Source: an uncultured delta proteobacterium (GTDB lineage Bacteria > Myxococcota_A > Polyangia > Polyangiales > Polyangiaceae). From it: a DNA stretch of 64,000 bases. Positions 32,571-49,383 of this stretch are shown one piece after another. The position numbers and the translations under genes are program-made. The first letter of the stretch is position 1; each line of letters opens with the position of its first letter. Under the pieces are notes generated by a model, which was given only the letters and a program-made list of their open reading frames with translations, made no database searches and was not told the DNA's origin. The stretch covers positions 32,001-96,000 of the forward strand of contig CAVOKF010000003.1 in NCBI GenBank assembly GCA_963696385.1, given 5' to 3'.

Positions 32571-32643
32571 GCGGGACTAGCTCAGTTGGTAGAGCGTCGG
32601 CTTCCCAAGCCGAAGGTCGCGGGTTCGAGACCCGTGTCCCGCT
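32571..32643 (+). tRNA. tRNA-Gly (CCC)
   Basis: GCGGGAC/GTCCCGC acceptor stem, TCGGC-TTCCCAA-GCCGA, GGTTCGA; TTGACA 50 bp upstream. Confidence 0.96.
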
Positions 32644-33901
32644 CTGAATGATTCCGTGAGGTTGCGAGTAACTCTGCAGGTACTTGACGAGCATCATCGG
32701 TCACCGCTGGTGACAGAAGACGGGCCGCCAACCCCGGATCGATATCCGGCAACGCGGCGGCGGGTACCGGCCTCGCGGCGTCGAGCTCGCGCACGTACCC
32801 CATGTGGACCTTCGGGTCGGCGTGGCTCGCGAGCGTCATTGCCGTCTGCATGTTGACCCCTGCCCCGGCCAGCGCCCGATTGTATGCGCGCCTCAGGCTG
32901 TGGAAGTTCATCCGACGAGACACCGGGGTGTCCCAGTAAAGCGGATCCGCCGGGTTCGGCTTGCCCTTCAACGGAGGGAGCCGCACCACCCCGGCTCGGA
33001 AGAAGTCGCGGCGCAGACGGTTCGCGAACGAGGTGCCGCGGGACTTCTTGTCCTTCCCTGCCCTCGGCCCTCGACGCACCGGGAACACCGGTCCGGCCGT
33101 CGGACCCCCTGCCCTCGCCCACCATGCTCGAAGGAACGGCCGGAGCACTTCGGGCACTTCGAGGTGCTGTATCTCGCGAGTCTTGGACCGCGCGATCGTG
33201 CACCGGGCGAACTCAACCGTATCTATCATCGTCCAGTCCCAACGGATGAGCTCTGACGTCCGCATGCCGCCTTCGGTGCGGGCGACGAACGCGAGCAGCT
33301 TCAATTCGAGGTCGCAGTCCGGCGCGGCCAGGAACTTGCCGACCTCGGCATCCGTCGGACTTACGAACGGGCGCCGATCTCTCTTGAGGCCTTCGGGCAG
33401 TTCGACGTCTTCGGCGGGGTTTGCAGCGATGAGCTTTTCGATCTTGGCGCGCTTGAAGTCGCGGCGCATCACCGCGCGGATCTTGTGTACCGTCTCGTGT
33501 CCTAGCCCGTCGTCGCGTGCCTGCTCGAGAGCCCGACGAACATCGTCATCCGTGATGCGCGTAAGCTGTACGTCACCGATGACGCGGTAGATGTACCGAA
33601 CGCGATTGTTCTGTTCGTCCCGCGCCATCACCACGCCCGCCGCATTGCGCCGCTCGTGTCGGTCCGTCGTGTACGATCGGTATGTCTCCGCGACCTCGGT
33701 CTTGGCTTGCGCGTCGGCAACGTACTCCCCCGCTTCGATCATCGCGACGAGTCGGGCAAGCTTGCGCTTCGCCGTTTGCCGATCCTTCGTGTTCAGCGCC
33801 ATCCATCGGCGTTCGTCGGTGCCGTCTGGTCGTTTGACCCATACGCGGGCGTAGAAACCGCTCGGCTTCGCGATGATCGTGCCTGTTCTTTTGATAGCCA
33901 T
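32582..33901 (-). CDS. int: Tyrosine integrase
   Basis: GGMRTSEL, NFHSLRRAY, ASHADPKVHMGY; reads through att into the tRNA. Confidence 0.92.
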   Translation of the reverse strand: MAIKRTGTIIAKPSGFYARVWVKRPDGTDERRWMALNTKDRQTAKRKLARLVAMIEAGEYVADAQAKTEVAETYRSYTTDRHERRNAAGVVMARDEQNNRVRYIYRVIGDVQLTRITDDDVRRALEQARDDGLGHETVHKIRAVMRRDFKRAKIEKLIAANPAEDVELPEGLKRDRRPFVSPTDAEVGKFLAAPDCDLELKLLAFVARTEGGMRTSELIRWDWTMIDTVEFARCTIARSKTREIQHLEVPEVLRPFLRAWWARAGGPTAGPVFPVRRGPRAGKDKKSRGTSFANRLRRDFFRAGVVRLPPLKGKPNPADPLYWDTPVSRRMNFHSLRRAYNRALAGAGVNMQTAMTLASHADPKVHMGYVRELDAARPVPAAALPDIDPGLAARLLSPAVTDDARQVPAELLATSRNHSERDTGLEPATFGLGSRRSTN

Positions 33902-33975
33902 CGTTCGCCTGCCTCTTCAGAACCGGGTGGCGCCCGGTTGACGCCCCTTGCGGGGCGTTTCGGCTATTCATGCGC

Positions 33976-34119
33976 TCACGGCTTGGTCTTGAGTCTGGCG
34001 ATCTCGTCTTCGAGCTTTGCGATCTGCTTTTTTAGCGTGTCGATTTCGCGATCCTTTGCAGAGAGCAGCGCGGCGTAATCATCGCGCTGGCGTTTTATCT
34101 GTTCCGGTGTCTCAGCCAT
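33976..34119 (-). CDS. 47-aa coiled-coil protein
   Basis: GGAGG RBS; MAETPEQIKRQRDDYAALLSAKDREIDTLKKQIAKLEDEIARLKTKP. Confidence 0.55.
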   Translation of the reverse strand: MAETPEQIKRQRDDYAALLSAKDREIDTLKKQIAKLEDEIARLKTKP

Positions 34120-34187
34120 CTTGGCCTCCCTCGTCCCGCATCACGTGCGGACGTGATCCTGATCGGATCACGTTTCGGCCTGGGACG

Positions 34188-34526
34188 CTATCGTCGCCGA
34201 AACACCCCGCTTTCCCGTGGAATGACCTCGCCCGTCGAATCGACAACCGCGTCGGACTGGCACGAGTGTCGCGGGCACGGCGACGGTTTCGCCCACGGGA
34301 GAGCGAGAGATGCGGCGACGTCGTGAGTCAAAACGACCCCGAATGCCGCGACGGCGTGTCCGCAAAATCGGCAGTGGTATTCGCTTGGCGCGAACGCGTT
34401 GCGCTCGACAGCTTGCGCCTTGACGAGTCGGCGCACACGTTGGTCGACAAGATGGCGCCAGAGTTCCGGCGAGCCCTTGAAGGGGGGACGTGGAAAGTAT
34501 CGGCGAAGGATTCGGGCGGCGCTCAT
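34188..34526 (-). CDS. Hypothetical protein (CxxC)
   Basis: ATGA-coupled to the upstream ORF; YHCRFCG. Confidence 0.5.
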   Translation of the reverse strand: MSAARILRRYFPRPPFKGSPELWRHLVDQRVRRLVKAQAVERNAFAPSEYHCRFCGHAVAAFGVVLTHDVAASLALPWAKPSPCPRHSCQSDAVVDSTGEVIPRESGVFRRR

Positions 34527-34804
34527 CGGCGGCCCCGTAGCTCGTGCTCGGCGAGGATGTCCTCGTCACGCACTTCGATGGGCTCGCGGTCGAGCACGTC
34601 GACTCGAACCGCAGCGGTGAACGAGGTGAAGCTCTTCTTTTTCGCGTGATAGAAGCGGGCCAAGTGCAAGAGCGCGCAGAAGGCCTGATCGACCGTGCGC
34701 GCATCGGCCGGCGTCATGTCGTCGTCGGCATCGATCAGGGCATCGAGGGCCGCATGCAGGTTTTCGCGGATTCTGTTTTTTAGGGGAGTGGCTAAACTGG
34801 GCAC
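34523..34804 (-). CDS. Hypothetical protein
   Basis: RBS AAGGG; coupled stop/start with the next ORF. Confidence 0.55.
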   Translation of the reverse strand: MPSLATPLKNRIRENLHAALDALIDADDDMTPADARTVDQAFCALLHLARFYHAKKKSFTSFTAAVRVDVLDREPIEVRDEDILAEHELRGRR

Positions 34805-35135
34805 GTTCGTTTCCCTTTCGGTTGCGGACCACGCTCCCGGCGGTTACAGCCGCGCGGGAGCATTCGTTGCGGGCTCGGTGCCCGCCCCGCGCCCGGCCCC
34901 CCAGCGGGAGCGGCACGAGGCGAGCGGCGAGGTCAACGCGTGAGGTCCTGGGCCAACTCCCTGATTCTCTCAACCTCTCCGAGAGCCATCACAATCGTGT
35001 CGGGGTCGGGGCTGCAGGCCAGCCGCTCGGACGCGAGCTCGGCCAGCCGGGCGATACGCGTCGCGACGACGAGCGTTCGCGAGGTTACCGGCTCGCGCCG
35101 GACAGTGGGGGCCTCGTCCGGCCAGGGGGCGGCGC

Positions 35136-35351
35136 TCACTTGCGGCCCTTCTTCGCGTCGGAAGCGAGCACGTCGAGCCCGCGGCGGATGGCCATGCGGA
35201 GCACGTCTGCCCGCGTGACCGACAGGCCAGGCTCGGACTTGGCTAGCGCAATTTGCTCGGCTTCCTCAAGCCACTCGGCGGAAAGGGCGATCGTTACTTG
35301 CCCGTCTTTGTTCGGATCCTTCGGTCTCGGCATCGTCGGCGAGTTCGCCAT
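35136..35351 (-). CDS. Ribbon-helix-helix (CopG-like) regulator
   Basis: QVTIALSAEWLEEAEQ...TRADVLRMAIRRGL. Confidence 0.7.
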   Translation of the reverse strand: MANSPTMPRPKDPNKDGQVTIALSAEWLEEAEQIALAKSEPGLSVTRADVLRMAIRRGLDVLASDAKKGRK

Positions 35352-35431
35352 GTTGTTCACCTCTCAGCCACCGTAGCAAGTTGCTAACGCCGTGGCAAGG
35401 TGTATAACTCTTGGGAAAGGTGGTGGACCGT

Positions 35432-35992
35432 ATGAAAATGATAACGATGCTGGTTTCAGCGCTGGCGCTTGCTGCGTGCGGAGGGGCGCCGGAAGCGCCC
35501 GAAAGCATGGCCGCCCCGTCCTCTTCGTCCAGCAGCGCGTCGAGCGCCGAGGTCGCGGACGGCGCCGGGAGCCCGGACGACGCCGGGAGCCCGGCTGCGA
35601 GCTCGAGTTCGTCGTCGGCGATGTCGGCCCCGACCAGCAGCGACGATGACGCTGGCGAGACCGTCGAGGCCGCGGCCGTCGTGATCGACGCTGGCGCCCC
35701 GCCGTCGTATACCCCGGACGCGGCATGCCATGATCTGGCCTGCGAAGGGAACGTGGGGCCGCCATCCGATGCCTCGCCCTATGTGACGACGTGCCTAAAT
35801 CAGGCGGACGGGTGCGACGGGTGCGTGAATCTCTCGACGACAGGATGTACCAGTTCAGGCGGCACGATCGCGGGCACTGACGTTCCCGTATATTCCTGCC
35901 CGATCGGTACGGTGTGCTATCCGGGTACACTAAATCGTGGCGGCGCTGGTAACACGGTGTCGTGCACGTTCACTAACATCTGCCCAATGTGA
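35432..35992 (+). CDS. Cys-rich lipoprotein (cargo)
   Basis: LALAAC lipobox, Ser/Ala linker, Cys-rich C-terminus; hairpin at 36000-36033 after the stop. Confidence 0.7.
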   Translation: MKMITMLVSALALAACGGAPEAPESMAAPSSSSSSASSAEVADGAGSPDDAGSPAASSSSSSAMSAPTSSDDDAGETVEAAAVVIDAGAPPSYTPDAACHDLACEGNVGPPSDASPYVTTCLNQADGCDGCVNLSTTGCTSSGGTIAGTDVPVYSCPIGTVCYPGTLNRGGAGNTVSCTFTNICPM

Positions 35993-36377: not shown

Positions 36378-36899
36378 CTAATTCAGCTGATTCATGAAAA
36401 TGCACTGCCACGCTAGCTGATCGCTGCCGGTGGTCGCGACTAGGAGGGTGACGGTCTGGCCCGAGATACTGAAACCGGAGTACCCGTTCACCGTCTCCGT
36501 ATTGCTGTCGAACGCCTGCGAGTAGGCGTTCGTTACCGTGCCGCCGACGTCGACGAACCCCATCACCTGGCGGAACGAGCCCGCGCCGTCCGAGGGGTTC
36601 GTGATGTCACGGAAGGTGCACAACTGCTGCACGTGCCACAGGTGGCCCGACGTCAGAGTCACCGCCATCGTCGTCGAGGTGAATCCCGGCGGCACGACGC
36701 TCAATCCCTGCCACCCGGTGGTCCACGTCACGCCCATTTGCCCCGCGCTCTCCGAGCCGAGCCAATAGCCGGGGGAGAGCAGGAAACTGCCCGCCTGGGC
36801 AAACGATGGGCTGGCCGACGGCTGCGTCTGCGCGAGGGCGACGCCAGCGACGAGCGCGAGCGCGACGAGAATGAGTGACGGGGAAAACCTGTGTTGCAT
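36378..36899 (-). CDS. Secreted hypothetical protein
   Basis: Signal peptide ...VAGVALA-Q. Confidence 0.6.
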   Translation of the reverse strand: MQHRFSPSLILVALALVAGVALAQTQPSASPSFAQAGSFLLSPGYWLGSESAGQMGVTWTTGWQGLSVVPPGFTSTTMAVTLTSGHLWHVQQLCTFRDITNPSDGAGSFRQVMGFVDVGGTVTNAYSQAFDSNTETVNGYSGFSISGQTVTLLVATTGSDQLAWQCIFMNQLN

Positions 36900-36909
36900 T
36901 GAGTACTCC

Positions 36910-38124
36910 TCAGCTCAGTTGAGAAAGCTGGCCCGAGATCAGCGAGAAGCGCACGGTGCCGACGGTGTCGTTGAAGCAGATCGCGGCCTGGACGGGGGAC
37001 ATCGCGAGGTTCGGCGAGTTAGCGCCGTTAGGTGTAATGTACACTTGACTTGGATACCATGATTGGCCGTCGGGGCTCCAAACTATGACGCCGGTGTCAG
37101 GTGTGCTTGCCGCGACGAGACCAAGCCAAAGCGAGCCGCATCCGCAAAGGTATTTGATTGCGGCCTGGCCGCTCGAAGTGGAAAAGGCATATACATACGT
37201 GTTGCCCGTCTCGGACACGTAGTAATTCCGAACGTTGCCGCCTCCCGACGGCTGCGTAACCAGCAAAAATTGCCCTCCGGGGTTTGTCGTAGTCGTTCCC
37301 CAGGCGAGCGCGATCGGAATGTCCGTGCCGATCGTGCTGGAGATAGACAGCGTCGTGGTCGTTCCGCCAGTGGCCATGGTCACGCTGCATACGCCACTCG
37401 CGCCGATGTAAACCGCGGCGCATGTCGTCGCGTTCGCCGCGACTACGGCATTCGTGAGCGATAGACCGGTCACTTCAGCGGTATGGCTAGAGTTCGTCAG
37501 GTAGAAGATCTCAGACCCAGCCGCCGAGCCGGACACGAGCACGGCCATGGCGAAGGATTGGCCGCTCGGGCACGCGACCGGGAATGAAGTGGCGGCATTG
37601 AAGGCGCCCATGCCCGTTTGCACCGCGGCAGGCGTAATCGTCTCGACGTAGCCGAGCCCGCCACTGATACGAGTCATGTAGCTGCAGCCGGAGTTATCGC
37701 AGGCGATGCCAGCAACCGTGCCAGTGGGAGTGAACCCCGTCCCGAAATTCACGGTCGTTGTCGAATCCGTGCCCGTGAGCGTCGAAAAGAAATTGAACGC
37801 GCTCGAATTGTATGTGTTCGCGCAAACCCATAAATTGAGCGTGGCATTCCATGCCATGGCGTTCAACGTGTAGGCGCCGGATTCGGCCACGAACTGAGGT
37901 TGCCAATTCTGCGCGATCGTCGAGTCACCGCCGGCGATCTGGACCGCGGCGACATTGCTGAATGCCAAATTCAATTCGAAGTTGAGCGCGGGGGCGGCTG
38001 CGCCAGTGCCGGGCGTGAAATAGGATGCGGACGGCGCGATCTTCGTGGGGCCGCCCGACCATGGTGAGGATCCAGCGGGGTAGTCAAGGGCAGTCGACCA
38101 GGTACCAATAAGCGGCTGTCCCAT
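36910..38124 (-). CDS. Beta-rich virion/tail-fibre-like protein
   Basis: G/S/T/A-rich 404 aa; N-terminal PWSGGPTK...P...LNF; Asp-box-like WSPDGQSW. Confidence 0.45.
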   Translation of the reverse strand: MGQPLIGTWSTALDYPAGSSPWSGGPTKIAPSASYFTPGTGAAAPALNFELNLAFSNVAAVQIAGGDSTIAQNWQPQFVAESGAYTLNAMAWNATLNLWVCANTYNSSAFNFFSTLTGTDSTTTVNFGTGFTPTGTVAGIACDNSGCSYMTRISGGLGYVETITPAAVQTGMGAFNAATSFPVACPSGQSFAMAVLVSGSAAGSEIFYLTNSSHTAEVTGLSLTNAVVAANATTCAAVYIGASGVCSVTMATGGTTTTLSISSTIGTDIPIALAWGTTTTNPGGQFLLVTQPSGGGNVRNYYVSETGNTYVYAFSTSSGQAAIKYLCGCGSLWLGLVAASTPDTGVIVWSPDGQSWYPSQVYITPNGANSPNLAMSPVQAAICFNDTVGTVRFSLISGQLSQLS

Positions 38125-38297
38125 TTACTTACTCCAAACGCTTTCGTTCCAATTCGACTGATTCCAGATCGCGGGTGGCGCCGGTGCCGGAGCGATATCC
38201 ACCGAGGCCGAGACCTCGCCGGTTAGCTCGAATTTAGCCGTGGCTTCCGCGGTCGGGACGGGCACGGTCGCGTCAATCGAACAGACAAATTCCTGGC

Positions 38298-38657
38298 TCA
38301 TTTGCTTTTCTCCACAGGTGTCCCGGCGAGCGTGTTGGCGCCGGTTCGGATTCTCATTCCGCCGAAAGTGATTTCGGCATTCTGTCCTAGGTCTGCAACC
38401 TCATTCCAAAATAGCCATGCGTAAATATTTCGCCTGTCGCCTGGTCGCAGCGCCTTGAGCGATCGGAGGACGTCGGCGGCGTCCTTGCGGAACGTGAGTG
38501 CGTCGCGCCGGGTCTCCGCGTTCGCTCGAAATTCCTCGTCGGTCGGAGTCGGCGCCGTCGGCTCCGGAACAACGGGTGTGCCGGTCAAAGCGTCGCTACG
38601 GTTGAATACGGCTCCCGATGTCATTGGCTCATTCACCTCGCGTCCGACCCATTGCAC
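38298..38657 (-). CDS. Hypothetical protein
   Basis: Co-oriented ORF in the terminase operon. Confidence 0.5.
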   Translation of the reverse strand: MQWVGREVNEPMTSGAVFNRSDALTGTPVVPEPTAPTPTDEEFRANAETRRDALTFRKDAADVLRSLKALRPGDRRNIYAWLFWNEVADLGQNAEITFGGMRIRTGANTLAGTPVEKSK

Positions 38658-39375
38658 GCACCTTCGGTTTGCCGACGGGCGTGCGCCAGGCGTCCTTTGC
38701 TCGCGCGATCATGGCGTCGCGCGCGTCGGTCGTCGCCGAGTCGCCCTCTCCGAACGTGTCAGGCGTGGACATACCCCCGCCGAAAGAGCCCGACGCCTCG
38801 CCCTGGTTCCCCCCGCCGAACGCGCTCCGTCCGTGCTCGGTCTGCGCTCGCTGGACGCGCGGAGCATTCTGCCGGGCTGATTCTCCGTACGGTCCGTCGT
38901 TGGGCGGGGTGCTCTCGTTTTTGCCCCTTGACCCCCCGGGAAACGAGCCGTCGTGCCCCCGTGCCGGACGATATCCGTACTGGGCAAGTTCGAGGCCCCG
39001 TTCGAATTTCGCTTGCAGAGCGGCGAAACCCGCTGCGCGCTGTTCGTCGGCCGAACTGAGCGTTTCCTCTTGTGTAGAGGTGTTCGTCTGGACGCCGCTC
39101 TCCGTCAGCATCGCGTCGGCGCGCGACTCGGCGCCGCCGGCGTAGATGAGATCCATCGGATCCAAGAATCGCGGCGCGGCGTCCGAGCGAAGCTGGCCCT
39201 TCTTGACGGCCACTCCGTAGACGCCCTCGATGTATGCAGCCGACGCGTTCGCTGGGATCTCGTAGCCGATCCGCGCGAGTTCTTTGCGACGAACGTCGGC
39301 GACGCCCCTCTCGTATTCGGGGTTGGGTGCCGGGTCTCTCGAGTTCGATTCATATCGCATTCCCATGGCGTTCAC
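38629..39375 (-). CDS. Hypothetical protein, possibly scaffold-like
   Basis: ASAAYIEG and C-terminal DSATTDARDAMIARAKDAW recall DUF2213-type tails. Confidence 0.4.
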   Translation of the reverse strand: MNAMGMRYESNSRDPAPNPEYERGVADVRRKELARIGYEIPANASAAYIEGVYGVAVKKGQLRSDAAPRFLDPMDLIYAGGAESRADAMLTESGVQTNTSTQEETLSSADEQRAAGFAALQAKFERGLELAQYGYRPARGHDGSFPGGSRGKNESTPPNDGPYGESARQNAPRVQRAQTEHGRSAFGGGNQGEASGSFGGGMSTPDTFGEGDSATTDARDAMIARAKDAWRTPVGKPKVRAMGRTRGE

Positions 39376-40793
39376 TTACCTTTCTTCGAAATTAGTGCCC
39401 CAAGTTCCACGATTCCCGCCGCTGCCGCCTCTGCGGCCCACGAGCTCAACTCGTCTTTCGACGTATTTCCGCTGTACGGCCGATCCACAGGCCTGGTCAC
39501 TCGGAGGTCGATCTTGTCGATCTGCTGCATATTCGGATCCTGCAAGATCCGGATCGGCGGATGCGTTGTCCCGATTGCGCCCGCCTGCACAGGAATCTGC
39601 CGATGTGCCGACATGCGCTCTTGATCCAAGAGCTCGGACCAGATGAGAGCGACTGCAGCCGGGGGCGAGATCAGATATCCACGGACGCAAACCTCGACGA
39701 TATGTCTCGGCATCCACCCGAGCGCCGTCCTTACTTGGTACAGGTATGTCGCCCACTCCCGGACGAACTCGCGCGCCGCATCCGTGTGTTGCTTGCTGAA
39801 CGCCTCGACGGGGCCAGTCTTCCGACCGGGTACATGTCGCTGGAGAATGCGGCACACAAGACCGTATGATTCGGTGTCGGGCAATCCGACGGACGCCAGC
39901 ATTTGCGCGTTGGCCGTGATGACGTGCTGAGGCGCCAAGATCTCGCCAACCGCGAAGACAACGCGCGGCAAAGGCAAACCCGGTATGGCCCGAAACACGA
40001 TCGTGCCGCCGATCATCGTCGCGGTAGCGAGCTCGCGCGGAATGGTCACGCCCGGTTCGTCGAGGATGCGGATGCCGACGAAATCGAGATCGCGAAGCGT
40101 GCGGCTTTCGATTCGGTTTGCCTCGGTGAAAGCGCGCTGGGCCGCCTGCGCCTCCGCTTCGATGCGCTCGTTTTCGGCCTTCTGCGAGGCCTCTAGCTCG
40201 CGAGCACGAGAGCCCGGAGCGACGAGCCGCTTGCCTGCCACGACCGGCCGCCCGATCACCTGAGCGCAGTGCGAGAAAGAGGCACCGAGGGATCGCATGG
40301 CCGACACCGCGAAGAGGTCGAACACGCGATCGGCGAACGTGTACTTGATCAAACCGCTGACCTCGGGCCGATGGCGGAGAATTTCGCGCGCCGCCGCGTC
40401 GGCTTCGTTGAGATGCTCCTCGAACACTTCGGTCCCGTCGTCGTCGATGCCGATCGATTCGATGGCGAGCCCGTACAGCTCCAGGCAGAGCAAAGCCGTG
40501 GGGCGAGCGGCGCCGTTGATCGGCTCAAGTCGCGCGATCTCGGTGTCACCCTGACGGATGACGATCGGAGCGTCGAGGGGGGCGCACCAAGGCACGAGCG
40601 AGCCGTTTTCGAGCAACGGGTTGACATCGCGCACCCGGACGTCGTCGACGATGACGAACCGAGCGCACGGCGGGGGCGCCGGCGGGCGATGGCGCTCCGC
40701 GGCTTCGCGAACGATTCGGAGGGCGTAATCGCCGCCGTGCTGGACAATCCCGTTTTGAACGCGATCGGGGACGTGGGGAATGCTGGTCGTCAT
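39372..40793 (-). CDS. Hypothetical protein (473 aa) downstream of terL
   Basis: Long co-oriented ORF; no recognised motif. Confidence 0.6.
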   Translation of the reverse strand: MTTSIPHVPDRVQNGIVQHGGDYALRIVREAAERHRPPAPPPCARFVIVDDVRVRDVNPLLENGSLVPWCAPLDAPIVIRQGDTEIARLEPINGAARPTALLCLELYGLAIESIGIDDDGTEVFEEHLNEADAAAREILRHRPEVSGLIKYTFADRVFDLFAVSAMRSLGASFSHCAQVIGRPVVAGKRLVAPGSRARELEASQKAENERIEAEAQAAQRAFTEANRIESRTLRDLDFVGIRILDEPGVTIPRELATATMIGGTIVFRAIPGLPLPRVVFAVGEILAPQHVITANAQMLASVGLPDTESYGLVCRILQRHVPGRKTGPVEAFSKQHTDAAREFVREWATYLYQVRTALGWMPRHIVEVCVRGYLISPPAAVALIWSELLDQERMSAHRQIPVQAGAIGTTHPPIRILQDPNMQQIDKIDLRVTRPVDRPYSGNTSKDELSSWAAEAAAAGIVELGALISKKGK

Positions 40794-40821
40794 TTTCGTT
40801 GGCCTCTTGTAGTGTGTATCG

Positions 40822-41175: not shown

Positions 41176-42809
41176 GTGTTCCCGTAGGTCGTCTCAAAGA
41201 ACCAGCGAGCCCGATGCGGGAATCCCTGATCCTTGCACGCTGGATCAATCACGATGTTTCCGATCATGTCGCCCACCTTCCATCGCGCAATGCCGTTGAC
41301 ATAGTCGGCGTCCACGTACGTGATCGTGCCGCCGCTCTCCGTGAGTGTGTACGTGTCTTTCTTGAGGCCGACTTTTCGGCGCCAGCCAATGAGCTCCGCG
41401 AGCACATTCGTGTAGTGTTCGGTGGCCTGCTGATAAACGCCCTGATCGAATACGCGTCCGCCACGAGCATCCACCGCGGACATCGCTCGGACCCAACTTG
41501 CTTCGCCGTTCGAAGCCCGCGAGGCGCAGAGCGCGATGCTCTGTGCGTGGTCGGAGTGTCGCCCCCCCTGGCGTTCGAGCTCGATACTGAATCCGCCCTG
41601 CTTCGATACCAACTTGCGAACTCCGAGTAGATCGGAGCGGAGGATCGGCACGTCCGGAATCTCGATCGTGCCGTCCGTGAACCGGCGCTTGAGGGAATCG
41701 AACATCTGCACTTTCCCCGGTTGCGTCATCGCTTCCTGCACGAGCTCGATGCCGTGCCGATCCGCATGGGACTTCAGAGCATCGAAGGACCACTGATCCT
41801 GTACGAGTTCGTCGATGCCGTACGACTTGAGGATTACCGCGATTTCGCCCATCGTGGCGTCGCTGTCCAAGGCACCACCCTTCGGTGCGCGCCAGCCCTG
41901 CACACGCACGATCTGGACACTGCCGGACTCGAGTTCGCGACCGATCGCTAGACTCCACTCGTTGCTGCGCGTCGCCGGATCTTGTGCGGCAAAATATCGA
42001 CCACCTGGGACGTGCGGAATCGAGGCTTGGCCTCTGTGCGTCGCGGCCAGCAAGAGCGATTCCGAGAACATCGAAAGCATGTCCCCGGCGAACGGGATTG
42101 CGCCGTATTCACGCAGAAACGTGTCCTCGTCGGGCTCAAGCTCGCGGCATTCTTGCTCGGTGAGACTCGGGCGCGCGATCCATGTCGCGGCTTGCGTGAC
42201 AACTTGGAAATCGGTGTCGCCCGCGTCGATTGCCTTGGCGTGCGCATCGTTGCGGCCCATCGGACTCGACGAAAGGAAGATCTTCGCATTCGGTTGGCCG
42301 GCCATCGTTGGGCGAAGGCTCGCGAGCACCTCCGTCGCCGGGTTTGAGCCGGTGTCGACGTCCTTCCATTTGGCAACCTCGTCGCAAATCGCGCATATGC
42401 AGGTGAAGCCCGAGACGCCGGAGATCGAGGCGGCGAACGTTTTGAAGGCGACGGGGCGCGACTCGAGCTCGATGCCGCCGTCGCACGGCTTGTACTTCAC
42501 GCCGAGCGCCGCAAGGATCGCCTTCACCGTGCGGAGGCGTTCGGCGGACTGGTCGCGCGATACCGATATGATCGCGACAACGCCGATGTCACCCGCGGGA
42601 ATCTTGTGATCTCCGTACAAGCCTTCGAGGACGCCAACCCGGCAAAGACTCGACGACTTGCCGCCACGGCGACCTACGCGCCCCGCCCATTGCCGTTTCC
42701 CCGATGCGTAGAACGATGCGAGGGTATTCTTCCACCAATCGCTCATCGGGTGGAAGTCCGCGCTCGCGAGGCGCCGTTCGAGGGGGGTGAGATGGTCGAG
42801 GACGCTCAT
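41157..42809 (-). CDS. terL: Phage terminase large subunit
   Basis: GRRGGKS Walker A, ICDEVA Walker B, SSSP motif, REYGA, AAQDPA nuclease, SDHAQS. Confidence 0.85.
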   Translation of the reverse strand: MSVLDHLTPLERRLASADFHPMSDWWKNTLASFYASGKRQWAGRVGRRGGKSSSLCRVGVLEGLYGDHKIPAGDIGVVAIISVSRDQSAERLRTVKAILAALGVKYKPCDGGIELESRPVAFKTFAASISGVSGFTCICAICDEVAKWKDVDTGSNPATEVLASLRPTMAGQPNAKIFLSSSPMGRNDAHAKAIDAGDTDFQVVTQAATWIARPSLTEQECRELEPDEDTFLREYGAIPFAGDMLSMFSESLLLAATHRGQASIPHVPGGRYFAAQDPATRSNEWSLAIGRELESGSVQIVRVQGWRAPKGGALDSDATMGEIAVILKSYGIDELVQDQWSFDALKSHADRHGIELVQEAMTQPGKVQMFDSLKRRFTDGTIEIPDVPILRSDLLGVRKLVSKQGGFSIELERQGGRHSDHAQSIALCASRASNGEASWVRAMSAVDARGGRVFDQGVYQQATEHYTNVLAELIGWRRKVGLKKDTYTLTESGGTITYVDADYVNGIARWKVGDMIGNIVIDPACKDQGFPHRARWFFETTYGNTWGVAR

Positions 42810-43378
42810 GTTTCGACCTTGTCGCCGGGCAAGCGCCATGCAGCGAGCGGATCCACCGGACCCTTCGGGCGCGCTTGCGCCTCGCGCGCGCAAAGCTCGT
42901 GCGCGGCCAGTAAGTGCTGGCGCGATGTCTCGCCCAGTCGGGCGCTCCGCATGGCGAGCTCGGGGTCACCCGTCGAAGCAGCGAGGTCGGAGAAGTACCG
43001 CGACCAGGCCAGCGCGAGCGCAGCCGACGCAACGACCGACGATGGGCCGGGGCCGCACACACCCCCGCCCACGGTGCGGGCGAGCTCGGCACACTGCGTT
43101 CGTCGGAAACTCGACGCTGCCGCCTTGTACTGACGGAATGCAGCGTCGTCGGGCAGGGTCGTCAAGCCGAGACGCGACGAAAGACGGCTCTTGCCGGCCA
43201 GCGCTTTTCCGCCAGCGCGCGCCAACGAGTTGCCGCGGGCAAACCTCCCCGCCTTGCCGCGGTCCGTCGGGCTAGCCTGACGGGCTTCCGCGGGCACACC
43301 GTCCGGCAGCTCATCGGGCGGCAAAACCTCGATCCGGGGCGTGCCTGCGCCCGCGCCGTGGCCACTCCTTATTGCCAT
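42806..43378 (-). CDS. Putative terminase small subunit
   Basis: GRFARGN motif; ATGA overlap with terL. Confidence 0.55.
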   Translation of the reverse strand: MAIRSGHGAGAGTPRIEVLPPDELPDGVPAEARQASPTDRGKAGRFARGNSLARAGGKALAGKSRLSSRLGLTTLPDDAAFRQYKAAASSFRRTQCAELARTVGGGVCGPGPSSVVASAALALAWSRYFSDLAASTGDPELAMRSARLGETSRQHLLAAHELCAREAQARPKGPVDPLAAWRLPGDKVET

Positions 43379-43402
43379 GGAGTCCCCACGGATGTGCTAG
43401 GA

Positions 43403-43612: not shown

Positions 43613-43981
43613 ACATGGGCGAGTACACCTACATCGTTGGCCTTGCCATCATGGGTCTGGTCGTGTTCACGGTCGGGATGATTGCTGCCATGATCGAGCG
43701 CGGTCATGGGTCCACCTCGAGCGCGGCCACCGACGCGAACGCGTCGCGAACGTCGACAAGCCACGCCAATCCGATCCTGTCCGCGTCGAAATAAGTCCCC
43801 TCGTAAAAGCCATCGGGTCGCAGGGTCGCTTTCCAGCGCGCCCCGATGCCGAGCCGGTTGCCGGCCGCGAAGTGCCCACCGGGGGTACGCCCTTGCCGCG
43901 GGTTCGCGTCGGTTTCGCTGGACGTAGAATCGCTCGCGCGCACCAGCGTCGGCCGCGTCTTGCCGTGAGAGCGTTCGATGG

Positions 43982-44365
43982 TCATGTGGCGCCCTCGGCG
44001 GCAAACAGGGCGCGCAAGTCGGTCGGCCACTGCGGCGTACAGTCCTCAGGCCGGAACGGCGCCGCGTAATCGGGCAACCTCAGGATCCGCGGGGTGACCT
44101 CGGCGACTAGCGCCTGCCACTGAGGGCCGTGATCCGCCCATGGATCTACCGCGTGGCTCAGCTCGTGGACGAGAACGTCGCAGAATCGAATGCGGTCGAA
44201 GCGCAGCGTGCGCGGGGCGAGCCAAAGCGTGTCGCCGTCGCAGCACCCCTCGAGGGTTGGATCCACGTCATCGGGCAGACCGATCACAACCTGCGGAACG
44301 CGGTCGAGCTCAGGAAAGAAGCGAGCGGCGAGGCGCTCGACGAGGGACTGGAGATTAGTGATCAT
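43982..44365 (-). CDS. SprT-like zinc metalloprotease
   Basis: VLVHELSH...DHGPQW. Confidence 0.7.
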   Translation of the reverse strand: MITNLQSLVERLAARFFPELDRVPQVVIGLPDDVDPTLEGCCDGDTLWLAPRTLRFDRIRFCDVLVHELSHAVDPWADHGPQWQALVAEVTPRILRLPDYAAPFRPEDCTPQWPTDLRALFAAEGAT

Positions 44366-44978
44366 GGCCACCCCCGCGCGGTGCTTGGCCCTGGTGACGC
44401 TCGGCGGGGCGCCATTGCAGGCCGTGGTCCTGCTCGAGTCGCTCGGATTCCTCGAGAACGAGCCTCACGATCGCCTCGCGCCGCGCAGCCTCGGGCAGTA
44501 CGTGGAACGCGGCCCGCAGTCGCGGCCAGTACTCTCCACCGGCCCAGCGAGGGCCTCGGCTGTCGACGCCGGGAAACGTCGCCATCACGGCCTGGGCGGC
44601 GGCAAGGATCGCGGTCTCAACTTGATCGCCGCGAACCAGCGGGCGTGAATCGAAGCTCTCAGGATCGCGCTGCTTGCGCGGCTTCGGCGGCGCGGCTTCG
44701 CGGACCGCATCCCGCTCGGCCTGGCGCCGCGCCGCAATAGCAGCCACGAGCTCGGGGTCGGCACGGACGGCGTCGCTCAAGGTGCATCGTGCGACCCCTA
44801 GCGCGCTGGCCGCGGCCTCCAGCGAAGGTGACTCAAGCACAACCGCTTTGCGCTCGGGCGTAAGAAGGAAGGTCCGAGGGTCGACGCGCAAGGCAGAGCC
44901 AGCGGCCTTCGCTGCGGCGAGCCGTGCGGCGAGGGCAGGATCGGCAGCGGCGGCGCGGGCCACGGCCGCACGGCTCAC
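44355..44978 (-). CDS. HTH-containing hypothetical protein
   Basis: SLEAAASALGVARCTL. Confidence 0.5.
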   Translation of the reverse strand: MSRAAVARAAAADPALAARLAAAKAAGSALRVDPRTFLLTPERKAVVLESPSLEAAASALGVARCTLSDAVRADPELVAAIAARRQAERDAVREAAPPKPRKQRDPESFDSRPLVRGDQVETAILAAAQAVMATFPGVDSRGPRWAGGEYWPRLRAAFHVLPEAARREAIVRLVLEESERLEQDHGLQWRPAERHQGQAPRGGGHDH

Positions 44979-45696
44979 GCCGGACGCGTCGATGGCGCGC
45001 GTCGGCGGAACACCGCTCGCGATAGCCGATAAGAATCGCCTCGATGGTGTCGGCCGCGATCATCGGACCCCCTCCGGCTCGAGTGCAGCGACAATCGCTG
45101 CTCTCCAGGCCTCTCGGATGTGCGCGGTCAACTGATCCCATCGCGGCATCGGACGGCCGTCGTAGGTGAGACCACCCGTAAACGCGGCGTAGCCCCGATA
45201 GGCGCGCTCGGCGGCGCTGGCGAACTGGTCGGGGGTCACTGGTCATCCTCCAATCGAAAGCCCCGTGGCGGGGCGGTTGCGGTCGCTGCAAGTCCGACGG
45301 CGGAGTGATTCATGGGCACGGAAGGGCCGGACCGGGACGTCCCCGGCCACCACGCCTCCGCCGTCGGACGAGCGTCGGCGGCACCATGCCGTCGCTCGCG
45401 CCCGCCAGGGGCTCCCGCTGAGTGAGATACAAGGCAGGCTCGAGTCTGTTGGCCAGCGCCAGAATCCTCAATGATTACGCTGGCAGAGACACTAAACGAG
45501 CGCAGTGACTCGTCGCTGGTGACTACTCGTCTCATGATCGCCAGCGATTCACGGCCTTCGCGCGCGTTGAGCGTCGGCTGCATGTGCCGACGATTACGAG
45601 AAACATCGAAGGATCCGCGGCAGATCGCAGGGTCCACGACGTTTCCGGGTTGCCCAATAGGCAGGCCTGGGCAGGGCTCCAAGTGATTTCCCAATT

Positions 45697-45792
45697 CCCG
45701 ATGCTCCTTAAGGAGCGCATCGGGTAATCGGGTAATCCTTCACCCGATGGCATCGGGAAAGAATCGGGTAAACATCGGGTAATCGGGTAATC
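45697..45792. repeat. Iteron-like ATCGGGTA array (candidate origin)
   Basis: Six direct copies (45719, 45727, 45752 variant, 45763, 45774, 45782), two inverted CCCGAT and the palindrome GCTCCTTAAGGAGC. Confidence 0.7.
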
Positions 45793-45794
45793 GC

Positions 45795-46994
45795 TCACGG
45801 TGCCTCCGGCGGGGCCGCGTGGCTGAGGTAGAGGCGTCGTCCGTTGCCACGGCCGGGCACCTTTCGTTGAACGACCTCGCCGTTGTCGCAGAGCGTGTTG
45901 ACGGAAGCGCGCACGAGCAGGGCGTCGAGTCCGACGATGGCGCGAACGGCGTCCGTGCCGGCGATGCCGGGGTGCGAGCGAATGCACTCGCGAACCGCTT
46001 CGACCGCTTTGGCCAAGCGGGCATCGCCAGTCGGCTTCGCGGCGGTCAGCTCTGCGCGGTCGATGTGGCAGACGACGAGACCCCATTTCGGGTCGCCGTC
46101 GGCCTGTACGTCATCGATACGCAAGCCAAAGTCTGCGACGGCTTGACCGAGCGCCCGGTCCTTTTCGTGCGTCACGAGGGAGAGCGCTTCGCCTTTCTTC
46201 TTTGATTGGACGAACATGCTCTGAAACTCGTCGAGGATGCCGGACGAGCCGCGGGCCATTTCCTTGCGCGTCCGCTGCGAGCCTTCGTTCGGCGTCTTGC
46301 CCGCGTGGTGAATAAGCTCGACGGCGGCGCCGCTCGAATCGGAAGCGCTCGAAAGGGCGCCGATGTACCCGCGCACCTGCGACGAGTTCTCGTCGAGTCC
46401 ACCGAGCATCGGGCGGAGGGAATCGCAGGTAACGAGGCGCACGCCGGCGAACGCTCTACGGAATTGGTCGGCCGCCTGGTCGGACGTAAGCCGAAGGTCC
46501 GGCAGAATGGCGACGCGGATGAATCCATCAGATATGAGTTCGCGGAGATCATCGTCGATGATGCCGAGTCCGCGGGCGAGGCGATGAATCGTTTTCTTCG
46601 TCTGGCGCCGACCCATCTCATAATCAAGATGAAGCCATGGCCCTCGATGAACGTTCCATGTCCCCCATAGGGGCTTGCCCGTGGCGACGGCGAGGCCCAT
46701 CGAGCAAATCGATATGGTCTTGCCGGACCAGGCTTGACCAATCCAACCGTTGACGGGGCCGGCCCCGATTCCGAGCGCCGGAATGGTCAGGCTCTCGACG
46801 TTCTCCGCCGCGAAGAATTCGTCAGCGTTCAGACAACGCACGGGGATTGACGGCTGCGATACGCGTTCCAACTGCTCGCGCGTCGCGTGCGGATAGTGGC
46901 CATTCGCCTCGTCGACGATCGCCCGACGTTCCGCGGCTTGTTCCGCCTCGTCATCGGCAAAGAAGCCGTCGACATCTTCGGGCGGCAACGGCAT
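45795..46994 (-). CDS. RepA-like AAA_25 replicative helicase
   Basis: GQAWSGKT, LDYEMG, VTCDSL, IHHAGK, ARGSSG; C-terminal winged-helix-like region. Confidence 0.85.
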   Translation of the reverse strand: MPLPPEDVDGFFADDEAEQAAERRAIVDEANGHYPHATREQLERVSQPSIPVRCLNADEFFAAENVESLTIPALGIGAGPVNGWIGQAWSGKTISICSMGLAVATGKPLWGTWNVHRGPWLHLDYEMGRRQTKKTIHRLARGLGIIDDDLRELISDGFIRVAILPDLRLTSDQAADQFRRAFAGVRLVTCDSLRPMLGGLDENSSQVRGYIGALSSASDSSGAAVELIHHAGKTPNEGSQRTRKEMARGSSGILDEFQSMFVQSKKKGEALSLVTHEKDRALGQAVADFGLRIDDVQADGDPKWGLVVCHIDRAELTAAKPTGDARLAKAVEAVRECIRSHPGIAGTDAVRAIVGLDALLVRASVNTLCDNGEVVQRKVPGRGNGRRLYLSHAAPPEAP

Positions 46995-47037
46995 CACGAT
47001 GCGCTCCTCAGCGAGGCCAGCGGTGTAGTGGGAGCGC

Positions 47038-47935
47038 TCATGCGTCACCTCCGCGACCCAACGTGGGGCAATCGACCCACGCGACTTGCGCCCAACCATC
47101 GATTAGGATGAGCACTGGATAGTTGCGACCGTCGTCTCGCGGGTCGCTGTCGATCTCCGTGAGAATCTCGTCCAGCCCGTCCAGGTGTAGCCCTGCCGAA
47201 TGCAGACAAGGCTGGATGATATGTCGATATGTGAGTTTCGGTGGCCGACCCTCGACCGCGAGAACAATACAAGTTTTCGCGGTGCAATCGTGCGGCGCTC
47301 GCATGATCGAGCCACTGGCCGTCCTCATTAGGCGATCCGCGCGGCGCTCAAGTTGTCGCTTGACGTGCCTAGACGGCGTCATCGGCGCACCGACCTGTAG
47401 ATTTTGGTTCCGTCCGGACACTCGCAAACGAACTCTGTATCGTCGCTCGGGTCATCGGGTAATTCGCCAATGATCGCCAAGTCGTTGTCGTCGAACGGCG
47501 GACCCTTCGCGAGCAGGGCATCGCGGCAGAGCACAAGAGCGCGAGCCATTCGAAGTTCCTCGATGGGGCGCAATACGTGCGCCGGCATCGGCCGCCCCTC
47601 GATTGCGGCGCGCTCGGCGGCGTCGAATTGCTCGACGTGCGCCGTCATTTGCTACCTCGCGCCGCCAAGAACTCGGGCAGTTCACTCGCCTTGATCTCGA
47701 CGTGCTTCGACTTCGGGGGTACCAGCATTTGCTGGACTGGCGCATGACCAGCGGCCCACTCGGCTTCGCGAGAGAGCAAGGCGAGCTCGCATAGCTTCAG
47801 CTCGGCAGTGGCCCTTTCGAACAGGCTTCGCGCCCGCGCCAGGTGGACACCGGCAGCGGGTTCGGTCGCCGTCGTGCTCGCGCCAAGATGCGCGCGGACC
47901 GCGGCGAACAAGTCGATGTCGACAGGCGCGGTCAT
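47038..47935 (-). other. Three small coupled hypothetical genes (47038-47427, 47379-47648, 47645-47935)
   Basis: Overlapping start/stop codons between xis and the helicase. Confidence 0.5.
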
Positions 47936-48303
47936 CGCCGTACCAACCCCGCCGCAGCGGCGATATCGTCAACACAGATCTCGACTTCACTCCGTGGCGC
48001 CCGCGTCGGCCTTTTGCCTCGCCGTGCGAGCCACGCCTTGCAGGCTTCGAAGTCGTAGCGTCTTGCGTCGCCAACATGGGCGGCGACAGGAAGACCCTCG
48101 CGCGTCAGTCGATCGACAGTGGACGCACTCACCCCGAGCACGAGCGCGACTTCTTTTTTTGACAGCAGCCGGTCTGCCGGAATGGACTCTGTGGTGGGCG
48201 CCATCGCCGATCGGATGGCGGCGACCACGTCGGGGCGGCGCAACGCATCCACAAGTGCGTCGCCGAGCAGACGAGCCCCGAGTGTGACTAGTTCGTCGCT
48301 CAC
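47932..48303 (-). CDS. Excisionase/AlpA-like HTH protein
   Basis: LLSKKEVALVLGVSASTVDRL...RRYDFEACKAWL. Confidence 0.8.
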   Translation of the reverse strand: MSDELVTLGARLLGDALVDALRRPDVVAAIRSAMAPTTESIPADRLLSKKEVALVLGVSASTVDRLTREGLPVAAHVGDARRYDFEACKAWLARRGKRPTRAPRSEVEICVDDIAAAAGLVRR

Positions 48304-48506
48304 GGCGCCACCTGACGGACGAAGGTCCGCGACCGGATCAGCGCCAGTGTCCCGCGGCGAATCGGTAACCCGCCGACTGCTTTGCCGATCGCCTCTCGAC
48401 CAACGCCACACCACCGCGCAACCTCGCTGACCGACGACGCGAGGATCACGCGTCGGAGCTCATCTCGCTCATGCTCGGAGAGCGCATCGGTCGCCGGGTG
48501 ACGCAT
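48300..48506 (-). CDS. Small Cro-like HTH protein
   Basis: SVSEVARWCGVGREAIGKA; GTGA overlap with xis. Confidence 0.55.
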   Translation of the reverse strand: MRHPATDALSEHERDELRRVILASSVSEVARWCGVGREAIGKAVGGLPIRRGTLALIRSRTFVRQVAP

Positions 48507-48855
48507 GCGGCAAACGTAGGCGCCCCGAATTTGCAACGGGACGCTGGCCCGCTATAGGGCCTCATGTTTTGACCTCTCCGGTTACAATTCGTAACTGGAT
48601 TAGATCGTCGCTAACATGCGGGAATCATTGCGTATGGCTCCGCACCCGATGGGGTACATCATGGGTACATCATGAGAGCCAAGTGGCATTTACAACCTCG
48701 GCCGCATCAAGGCCTCGGCATATCGGCGTCAGTCACCAGCCGGTGCCCCGTCACCACTCGTCACACTGAACTACTCGCAGATTCGCGCGCCGCACGTGGG
48801 CCACGCTGACGTCGCTTTGCTTGACGTTGCGGCACCTTGCAAACTTACGAAGGGC

Positions 48856-49215
48856 CTTCCCAAGCCGAAGGTCGCGGGTTCGAGACCCGTGTCCCGCTCC
48901 CTAGAAATCATTGAGGATTTGCCCTCCGGCTTACTGCGGCCCGCAGTAAGACCAGCAGTAAAATCCGCAGTAAGACCATCGGTTTTTGGGGTGCGATCCG
49001 TCCCGGGGACGGCTCGCATCGGCAGCTCGAACCCGTTGGCTGCGGACAGATCCAAGCGGATGCTCTCGACCGCCGCGTGCAGCGTGGCCAGCGTCTGCGC
49101 CGTGTAATGCTGCTGGGTCACGCCCGATCCGGCGTGCCCCATCAGGCGCTTAATCGTGGCCTCGGCGACGCCCGCCTCCGCGAGCCATGTCGCGAAGTGT
49201 AGAACGACGCGAAGA
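48856..49215 (-). pseudogene. C-terminal remnant of a second tRNA-Gly-targeting integrase
   Basis: FATWLAEAGV...LMGHAGSGVTQQHY, then ERDTGLEPATFGLG through att. Confidence 0.78.
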
Positions 49216-49383
49216 AGCGCGGAGAGTGCGTCGTGAAACGTTCGCGTTGAGGCTGAGCGGATGAGCATGGGGGGAGGCGTCTACGACGGCGCGAGGTCGC
49301 GTCACCAAGATCAAGTGCTCCAGCGAGGCGGCCTGGACCGGCCGGCGACGCATGGCGGTGGCGGCCGGTCTCCCCGGAGTCGC

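Follow-up and report, generated by a model that had tools for sequence, protein, structure and literature searches.

A 16.3-kb element in a Polyangiaceae tRNA-Gly gene with its own predicted terminase but no recognisable head genes, possibly one of a family of capsid-borrowing satellites

The DNA analysed here, a window of 64,000 nucleotides (positions 32,001 to 96,000 of contig CAVOKF010000003.1, from an uncultured member of the Polyangiaceae), carries an integrative element of 16,299 bp in a tRNA-Gly(CCC) gene; the host is a Sorangium-like soil bacterium. The element encodes a complete large terminase subunit (TerL), preceded by a protein in the position of a small subunit (TerS). We consider the chances about even that it is an intact member of a lineage of integrative elements of roughly 12-16 kb, found mainly in Polyangiaceae and inserted at tRNA and tmRNA genes. 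With similarly balanced confidence we read it as belonging to a helper-dependent, satellite-like lineage that has its own TerS and TerL and borrows capsids. The satellite-like assignment is made because of the layout (integrase, AlpA-like helix-turn-helix (HTH) protein, replication module with iterons, packaging genes, variable region), the narrow range of small sizes in the family and the absence of a detectable capsid or portal gene. Because the element has a full terminase without a head, we have not filed it under the phage-inducible chromosomal islands (PICIs), the capsid-forming PICIs (cfPICIs) or the P4-like satellites. To our knowledge, known satellites either borrow the packaging motor of the helper (PICIs, P4 and the PICI-like elements, PLE) or build heads of their own (cfPICIs).

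The integration target is the tRNA-Gly(CCC) gene at 32571-32644 on the plus strand (ARAGORN; Rfam tRNA score 69.1 bits), whose 3' 44 nt recur as an exact direct repeat (44/44 identical), and the element length follows from the positions of this pair. No third copy occurs in the 64-kb window with up to 3 mismatches allowed, and 0/100 shuffles gave a match. The 16.3-kb tRNA-Gly element with intact 44-bp att repeats that an initial annotation had described is therefore confirmed, its repeats being the sole such pair in the window.

32601-32644, no strand: attL core, the left copy of the 44-bp repeat, 0 mismatches
48856-48899, no strand: attR core, the right copy of the 44-bp repeat, 0 mismatches

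Between these cores the genes form a near-gapless chain on the minus strand, running from 48536 down to the stop codon of the integrase gene (int) inside the tRNA gene, with neighbouring ends overlapping or abutting. This agrees with the earlier description of tightly coupled genes almost all on one strand, the sole plausible plus-strand gene being a lipoprotein-like open reading frame (ORF) at 35411-35992. The G+C content at third codon positions (GC3) of the element ORFs is 0.65-0.86, and the overall G+C content of the element (0.60-0.70) shows no clear difference from the flanks, the left one of which holds the host genes for dUTPase and GreA. A scan for promoters and terminators did no better than it did in shuffled sequence.

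The two packaging genes are adjacent and overlap.

41157-42809, minus strand: terL, large terminase subunit, 550 aa from Met29, with Walker A GRRGGKS, Walker B CDE and the nuclease aspartates
42806-43378, minus strand: 190-aa TerS-position protein, overlapping the terL start and lying directly upstream of terL across the family

The window TerL has no Pfam match of its own; its relatives match Pfam Terminase_6N or Terminase_6C, and the protein itself matches phrog_2 (5.1e-11) and phrog_9 (2.3e-7) over residues 71-309 of the 578-aa ORF as listed, which is the ATPase half. Positions 328-462 of the family profile match the nuclease domains of TerL proteins in PDB (5tge, 8.5e-4; 5m1f, 6.8e-3). In an alignment of 40 sequences G46-R-R-x-G-K-S52, D143-E144, D277 and D338 are invariant and D420 is nearly so (numbered from Met29). 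By these comparisons the protein is a real large terminase with both an ATPase and a nuclease domain, and the original terL call stands.

The 190-aa protein is named TerS by position and conservation. Homologs lie directly before terL in 26 of the 43 genome loci described below (tblastn, E<=1e-6), and neither the protein nor, when scanned with it, 24 members of its family gave a match in Pfam, PHROGs, NCBIfam, PADLOC or the PDB sequences. A predicted complex of TerL with the 190-aa protein scored weakly (0.39, against 0.00 for the best of 3 controls; partner pLDDT, the predicted local distance difference test, at least 59, and at least 43% of the contacts shared between runs). The pass mark for such complexes was reached by 116/157 solved complexes and 2/215 mismatched pairs, and scores of 0.60 or less include 18 of those 157 solved complexes as well as both mismatches. 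Of the terS-like call, then, the conserved position and the weak complex score speak for it, and a match to a known family or solved structure was not found.

Between terL and int lies a late module whose seven ORFs (117, 473, 248, 119, 58, 404 and 173 aa) gave no match in Pfam, PHROGs, PADLOC or NCBIfam.

40822-41175, minus strand: 117-aa ORF between terL and the 473-aa gene, no family match
39372-40793, minus strand: 473-aa member of a rare protein family, its gene following terL directly both here and in the related locus L002
38629-39375, minus strand: 248-aa protein rich in G, S and Q, looking largely disordered, with a basic C-terminus; no family match
38125-38657, minus strand: 58-aa and 119-aa ORFs, no family match for the 119-aa ORF
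36910-38124, minus strand: 404-aa 'fibre-like' protein, 5% charged residues and 54% S/T/G/A/N
36378-36899, minus strand: 173-aa protein with an N-terminal signal-peptide-like segment and 6% charged residues, no family match

Across the 25-26 ORFs of the whole element there was likewise no profile match in Pfam, PHROGs or NCBIfam to a portal, capsid, protease, HNH, head-tail adaptor or connector, tail or holin protein. The initial annotation had stated that no portal, capsid or tail operon is recognisable, and with Pfam, PHROGs, NCBIfam and PADLOC we find none.

The 473-aa protein was carried as far as a fold. It is listed as a 512-aa ORF and probably begins at Met40 because its relatives begin there. 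A word-indexed search gave 3 relatives and an exhaustive search of 1.84 billion representatives gave 47; AlphaFold with 4 sequences reached a pLDDT of 44.7, and with 46 sequences 89.6 (predicted template modelling (TM) score, pTM, 0.64). Foldseek with this model returned 0 matches at E<=0.001 in PDB (best 0.33) or in BFVD (best 0.025), and PDB entries containing portals appeared only at E 1.4-2.6. Since the model is confident and finds no matching fold, what this gene encodes at the portal site is not a standard portal and not an HK97 capsid protein; the idea of a portal, or of an HK97 capsid with delta domain, was rejected on the fold search. The fold check that had been proposed for the late ORFs was thus carried out on this protein, and gave a confident model without a portal or HK97 match. 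Primase-polymerase was also considered and set aside, and is kept as a lead only: several BFVD matches, those ranked 1, 6, 7 and 14 among them, were Prim_Pol or primase-helicase proteins, at E 0.025-1 and TM 0.13-0.18. The alignment of 46 sequences has no conserved acidic or histidine column, and comparison of the 46 members with Pfam, PHROGs and the PDB sequences gave nothing believable (best 0.005-0.016, on single members). An ESM Atlas search gave no usable match, and a scan of related loci with the 473-aa alignment gave 461 pattern matches, 0 of them confirmed. With its confident fold, no structural neighbour and a tie to terL, the family is a concrete structural target. A relative with 59% identity (P0002) that is absent from the window seems to belong to the same genome, in which a second, diverged element is therefore probable.

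For the 404-aa protein no more than 4 relatives were found, at 82-100% identity; over its first 160 residues it is similar to an ORF of L002 at 13543-13908 (29% identity, E 2e-7), and relatives of the 473-aa and 404-aa proteins occur together on one 16,232-bp metagenome contig. Language-model searches gave weak leads to viral beta-propeller and receptor-binding proteins (scores 0.76-0.87), and a regular expression for the Asp-box found none. The 473-aa, 404-aa and 248-aa proteins had no tblastn match in 50,697 phage records.

The second line of evidence is the existence of a family. A word search with TerL returned 465 proteins at E<=0.001; the best 120 of these 465 are 43-68% identical to it and all without a Pfam domain, and contigs of 10-17 kb carry many of them. 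When the TerL alignment was used to scan a single genome of each species, 43 loci were found, mostly in Polyangiaceae/Myxococcota metagenome-assembled genomes (MAGs), and they include Sorangium cellulosum So ce56 (L009) and Sorangium sp. So ce1099 (L014). In fifteen loci direct repeats that take in the end of a tRNA or tmRNA gene mark off an element of 11,659-16,267 bp; the repeats measure 33-57 bp in 12/15 and 21-22 bp in 3/15.

L035: 11,659 bp, 21-bp repeat
L012: 11,686 bp, repeat of the 33-57 bp class
L006: 11,876 bp, repeat of the 33-57 bp class
L015: 13,064 bp, repeat of the 33-57 bp class
L030: 13,632 bp, repeat of the 33-57 bp class
L029: 13,800 bp, repeat of the 33-57 bp class, in tRNA-Gly(CCC) as in the window
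L026: 14,283 bp, repeat of the 33-57 bp class
L024: 14,343 bp, 22-bp repeat
L005: 14,450 bp, repeat of the 33-57 bp class
L013: 14,970 bp, repeat of the 33-57 bp class
L018: 15,126 bp, repeat of the 33-57 bp class, in tRNA-Gly(CCC) as in the window
L020: 15,615 bp, repeat of the 33-57 bp class
L027: 15,858 bp, repeat of the 33-57 bp class
L032: 16,122 bp, 21-bp repeat
L019: 16,267 bp, repeat of the 33-57 bp class

The proposed search for relatives of the same size has therefore an affirmative answer: these att-bounded loci, viewed with 10-kb flanks, are not 40-kb prophages. In at least 19 loci int and terL share a strand, with int 3-10 kb farther downstream. When the 25 window proteins were compared with the loci by tblastn, the recurring genes were those for TerL, the 190-aa protein and the integrase, joined sometimes by those for the AAA_25 ATPase, a 108-aa ORF and the HTH_17 protein. 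An all-against-all comparison of 13 elements found TerL in 13/13, the TerS-position protein in 10/13 and almost nothing else in common.

The closest syntenic relative is L002 (TerL 52% identical), in which the order is terS, terL, a member of the 473-aa family, an ORF like the N-terminus of the 404-aa protein, a homolog of the element's 74-aa ORF, and int. Its 473-aa homolog is found with an E of 2.5e-124 by hidden Markov model and by pairwise alignment with 25% identity and an E of 1e-9; the 74-aa homolog (38% identity, E 2e-10, tblastn) lies just upstream of int at 19290-19484. The region after terL in L002 (11578-17618) holds, besides the 473-aa-family protein and the 404-aa-like ORF, a Dit-like protein and a tape-measure-like protein, and gave no capsid, portal or tail tube match. 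Synteny, which the initial annotation had proposed to look for, is thus present in the shared terS-terL-473-aa-int order of L002, and the late module is otherwise variable among elements.

The content between terL and int was surveyed with 257 ORFs of 28 loci against PHROGs and 150 ORFs of 11 att-bounded elements against Pfam. Among those 150 ORFs Pfam found 0 portals and 0 capsids, and no att-bounded element has a portal or full-length capsid match. Many elements, including L024, L029, L032, L033 and L038, have no recognised virion gene between terL and int. The replication modules of the relatives include D5_N primase-helicases, Prim-Pol with VapE, AAA_25 and IstB-like proteins, and HTH_17 proteins are also present; the D5_N, Prim-Pol with VapE, AAA_25 and HTH_17 modules are satellite-typical. 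The cargo recognised by Pfam comprises Fic/DOC, Schlafen-AlbA_2, DUF4145, SocA/Panacea and YfbU proteins.

Among known systems the cfPICIs, reportedly described by Alqurainy and colleagues in 2023, offer the nearest layout. Like the window element they are integrase-bounded islands of similar size with an AlpA/MerR-type regulator, a replication module, terS (named by position in the window) and terL, and in neither is a tail tube or holin detected. The cfPICI pair of int and an AlpA/MerR-type regulator has its counterpart in the window int and HTH_17 protein. Unlike a cfPICI, the window element has no detected capsid, portal, protease, HNH or head-tail adaptor/connector gene, its gene after terL is by fold not a portal, its late module is hypervariable in the family, int is the last gene of the operon and not the first, and the host is a myxobacterium. 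By its gene content, then, it appears to hold the left half of the cfPICI component list plus terL and to lack the head and connector components. In the passages of de Sousa et al. 2023 (PMC10085698) that define these classes, cfPICIs have 11 core components and a median size of 14 kb, terL and the head-tail adaptor and connector genes separate them from PICIs, PICIs are without terL and use that of the helper, and the satellites found are mostly in Proteobacteria and Firmicutes. The claim that the element fits neither class therefore holds, since TerL is present and the cfPICI head genes are not detected by profile.

With the classical PICIs and the Staphylococcus aureus pathogenicity islands (SaPIs) the element would share site-specific integration, a terS-type factor and, as we propose, dependence on helper capsids; unlike them, it has a full TerL. 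SaPIs have a replication origin with iterons beside the replication gene, and in the window too iterons adjoin a replication gene. No homolog of known capsid-remodelling genes was found in the element by PHROGs, and in the general libraries Pfam and PHROGs no ORF matched the P4 core genes (psu, sid, delta, alpha primase). Of the trio of a complete Caudoviricetes prophage (TerL, portal and HK97-fold capsid, together with a tail), the element shows TerL alone. A tailed prophage of the Polyangiaceae, L010 in a Byssovorax sp. MAG, has the same TerS-position and TerL families in the same order (39-41% identity); unlike the window element it goes on with a portal (phrog_113), a protease (phrog_53), a major head protein (phrog_247) and Neck1. 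The suggestion of the initial annotation that this is a new type of satellite with its own motor is in part supported, by the misfit with both known types and by the same-sized family; TerS is named by position, and some relatives have structural genes.

Outside the family, the sole TerL match among 50,697 phage records is Virus Rctr16k (KX853514; 23.7% identity, E 3e-5), whose TerS-position protein before terL is 34% identical to the 190-aa protein (E 2e-6). As described in the part of Gambelli et al. 2016 (PMC5099504) that deals with it as 'phage genome 5', Rctr16k is a 17-kb circular contig from concentrated virus-particle DNA (depth 219x, G+C 67.8%, 25 ORFs), with no head protein in the annotation given there. 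Among the 23 ORFs that we compared with PHROGs are genes for an integrase, a DnaC-like loader, an O-like initiator, a head maturation protease and a tape-measure-like protein; none matched a portal or capsid family. Rctr16k resembles the window element in size (16.7 kb), high GC, integrase, replication module, TerS-position protein and a TerL of 24-25% identity, and differs in having the head maturation protease (phrog_328, 1.3e-29; 14483-15388) two genes after terL and a tape-measure-like protein of 580 aa; the sequences are very distant. Distant TerL homologs (25-27% identity) also occur on 4/72,556 plasmids, among them pKNA06 of Komagataeibacter nataicola (L045, NZ_CP019881), a 25.8-kb non-mobilizable plasmid whose record has the TerL match at two places and whose segment 4715-11671 carries a VapE protein, a recombinase, the TerL homolog (27%, annotated as hypothetical) and DUF2213, with no capsid or portal annotated. 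As summarised in a 2026 preprint on myxobacterial viruses (10.64898/2026.09.14.751636), these fall into six groups, all with capsid, portal and tail genes, and the sizes given for three of the six are 33.2-62.0 kb. In the open-access literature on phage satellites, myxobacteria and Sorangium prophages we found no description of elements such as this one.

The integration and replication modules complete the parts on which a cycle can be proposed, and the earlier calls of an integrase, an Xis and an AAA_25 helicase are all borne out by profile.

32582-33901, minus strand: int, tyrosine integrase, 439 aa (Pfam Phage_integrase 7.9e-8, Phage_int_M 8.1e-6, phrog_1 3.2e-27), its 3' end overlapping the tRNA 3' end
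45720-45790, no strand: five tandem-like TCGGGTAA iterons, clustered in a 71-bp stretch that adjoins the 3' end of the helicase gene
45795-47099, minus strand: AAA_25 (RecA/DnaB-like) ATPase of replicative helicase type, 434 aa (Pfam AAA_25 8.4e-20; PHROG primase/helicase families)
47932-48414, minus strand: HTH_17/excisionase-type DNA-binding protein, 160 aa (phrog_66 9.3e-11; TIGR01764 6.6e-5)

The Pfam HTH_17 score of the last of these (1.5e-5, 25.6 bits) is slightly under the 27-bit cut-off, and no primase domain was detected in the AAA_25 ATPase. A sixth copy of the 8-bp TCGGGTAA stands at 47455-47462, 1.7 kb from the cluster. All 6 copies of the 64-kb window lie inside the element, with 0.78 expected and 0/100 shuffles reaching 6, and the cluster is a candidate replication origin.

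In the satellite-like cycle that we propose, the tyrosine integrase and the HTH_17 protein would recombine the 44-bp core in the 3' end of tRNA-Gly(CCC), an end that the integrated element would restore. After excision, replication of the circle by the AAA_25 helicase may start at the iterons clustered 3' of the helicase gene. The TerS-position protein and TerL would then select and cleave the DNA of the element itself and drive it into procapsids supplied by a co-resident or infecting helper phage; a helper must be the supplier, since no portal, major capsid protein, protease or tail tube can be recognised in the element. More speculatively, the variable module between terL and int may fit the element to its helper or to the surface of the cell, and the parts of this module would be the novel-fold 473-aa protein, the disordered 248-aa protein, the beta-rich, receptor-binding-like 404-aa protein and the secreted 173-aa protein. 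Somewhat less than evenly probable, in our judgement, is the wider view that there exists an old and widespread lineage of capsid-less Polyangiaceae satellites, with analogues in other phyla and on plasmids, which combine their own terminase with stolen procapsids and a hypervariable, helper-specific late module, a third packaging strategy between that of PICIs (terS only) and that of cfPICIs (the whole head). If this is true, a full motor without a head implies that the terminase-portal interface can cross between unrelated genomes, which bears on the evolution of packaging specificity and of head-motor compatibility. It would also be the first satellite family of the myxobacteria, large-genome, antibiotic-producing soil bacteria with few known phages. 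The idea can be tested because related elements are present in the cultured Sorangium strains So ce56 and So ce1099.

Several observations weigh against a satellite. The helper phage, excision and packaging are all proposals from sequence. The fold search covered the 473-aa protein alone of the seven late ORFs, the other six being compared by profiles, and a divergent capsid or portal could be among those six. The loci were taken with flanks of 10 kb on each side, so that the att sites of a 40-kb prophage could be beyond view, and 7 of about 19 loci with full flanks are without delimited ends; the ORF calls in the loci are crude (GC3-based) and may split or miss genes. Structural genes also occur in the family. 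L010 alone has a canonical portal, protease, major head protein and Neck1, while in L018 a head protease of ClpP type (1.5e-70, 12252-13574) stands two genes after terL and in L019 there are short capsid and protease fragments. Tape-measure-like proteins are encoded in L002, L005, L031 and L034 (weak ones in L013 and L030), baseplate proteins in L020 and L034, and the Dit-like tail protein of L002 matches PF21821 at 2.8e-20. These genes and debris fit phage decay as well as they fit satellite toolkits. From the head protease, the capsid and protease fragments and the tail-tip-like genes of some relatives it is evident that the origin lies in phages, with structural modules present in part.

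Such genes are the strongest support for a lineage of defective, reduced prophages, in which a small temperate ancestor lost its head and tail, the elements persist and spread only vertically or by occasional integrase activity, and the terminase has no current packaging role. The capsid and protease fragments of L019, the lone head protease of L018, the isolated tail-tip genes of several loci and the canonical head module of L010 within the same TerL family would all be expected from it, and an integrase remnant and a second integrase-like ORF right of attR indicate that decay happens at this site. We nevertheless think it unlikely. The 15 bounded elements keep a narrow size range and intact att repeats, and the TerL ORF covers at least 380/488 profile positions in 33/43 loci. 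TerL appears to be under purifying selection, with invariant catalytic motifs and a dN/dS (nonsynonymous to synonymous substitution) ratio of 0.24-0.48 in 7/7 pairs, values that carry a dS near saturation in some pairs and a bias from GC3 and to that extent count less for the satellite. In an IQ-TREE phylogeny of 33 TerL sequences, from which 10 loci with a short or contig-end-cut TerL match were left out, both deep major clades (support 98/99 for each) contain small elements, and L010 forms a single long branch. Loss at random would not time and again spare terS, terL, a replication module and int and in every case take away portal and capsid.

We think it quite unlikely that the element is a very small temperate virus, able to propagate autonomously, with capsid, portal and adsorption proteins that escape recognition because they have diverged too far or are of too new a type; the candidates would be the 473-, 248-, 404- and 173-aa proteins. 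The late genes, co-oriented and tightly packed, do occupy the place of the head and tail genes of a phage; the fold of the 473-aa protein is confident and unmatched, and this protein keeps its place after terL in two elements, while the 404-aa protein has its receptor-binding-like viral leads. In the account of Rctr16k in PMC5099504, moreover, that genome came from a particle fraction as a 17-kb circle. The only folded candidate, however, the 473-aa protein, matches neither portal nor HK97 proteins, the late genes, at about 4.8 kb, leave too little room for a head and a tail, and the late module is not conserved among the 15 otherwise related elements, as a virion module would be. Every virus with a TerL-type terminase that we know of (Duplodnaviria) has a portal and an HK97-fold capsid protein, a rule that also tells against such a virus. 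Divergence alone is a weak excuse because PHROGs did recognise the portal, protease and capsid of L010.

An integrative, plasmid-like island, whose TerL-like ATPase-nuclease and its partner resolve concatemers or interfere with the packaging of invading phages and whose late genes are surface, secreted or defence cargo, seems to us improbable: the distant TerL homologs on small non-mobilizable plasmids beside VapE, recombinase and ParA genes and without annotated capsid or portal, the toxin- or defence-flavoured cargo of the relatives (Fic/DOC, Schlafen-AlbA_2, DUF4145, Panacea) and the predicted secreted and lipoprotein-like proteins of the window element point towards it, but no late protein has a PADLOC match, both packaging domains of TerL and its TerS-position partner persist through the family, and the head protease and tail-tip genes of relatives tie the family to virion assembly.

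The remaining features of the element are as follows.

33903-33965, minus strand: type II hammerhead ribozyme (Rfam RF02276, 52.2 bits against a gathering score of 37)
33976-34119, minus strand: small ORF of 47 aa, coiled-coil-looking by eye from its sequence, ending 10 nt before the ribozyme
34188-35360, minus strand: four small ORFs of 112, 93, 68 and 74 aa, GC3 0.69-0.84, no family match
35411-35992, plus strand: 193-aa ORF, putative cargo, with a signal peptide and lipobox-like N-terminus (…LALAACGG) seen by eye, GC3 0.75, no family match
43704-44030, minus strand: 108-aa ORF, with homologs directly before terL in L026, L027 and L029
43982-44371, minus strand: SprT-like putative zinc metalloprotease with an HELSH motif (Pfam E 0.0065, 16.7 bits against a cut-off of 25.6 bits)
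44355-45239, minus strand: 207-aa and 59-aa ORFs, the latter matching phrog_20502 (2.2e-6)
47038-47935, minus strand: three small ORFs of 129 (start uncertain), 89 and 96 aa, no family match
48300-48536, minus strand: 78-aa first ORF of the chain, no match in Pfam, PHROGs, NCBIfam or PADLOC

Two calls of the initial annotation fare less well here. The ORF at 48300-48536 had been called Cro-like, a name that none of the four libraries supports, and the SprT-like call keeps its motif while its profile score falls below the cut-off. A PADLOC defence scan of the 25 element proteins matched the HTH domain alone.

The hammerhead has its core segments CUGAAGA, GAAA and GUC intact and lies 2 nt upstream of the int start codon, where it may cut int off read-through transcripts of the long operon. 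According to the part of Perreault et al. 2011 (PMC3088659) that treats their location, many bacterial hammerheads lie near prophage integrases. A match at the gathering score was found in 0/21 related loci, and the ribozyme was accordingly dropped as a family trait.

Directly outside attR (48771-53677) lies the C-terminal remnant of another integrase gene, which reads into the att copy as the intact int reads into attL. Beyond it are ORFs of 627 and 297 aa without assignment and then a second integrase-like ORF at 52682-53677 (Pfam 4.6e-15). The stretch looks like what is left at this tRNA-Gly gene of one or several older elements, and no further att copy that would delimit it occurs in the window. 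Elsewhere in the window, adjacent tRNA-Glu(CTC) and tRNA-Gln(CTG) genes stand at 12286-12499 on the minus strand, with no element seen beside them, and a match to group II intron domains D1-D4 lies at 15628-15796, also on the minus strand (Rfam RF02003, 60.9 bits against a gathering score of 49).

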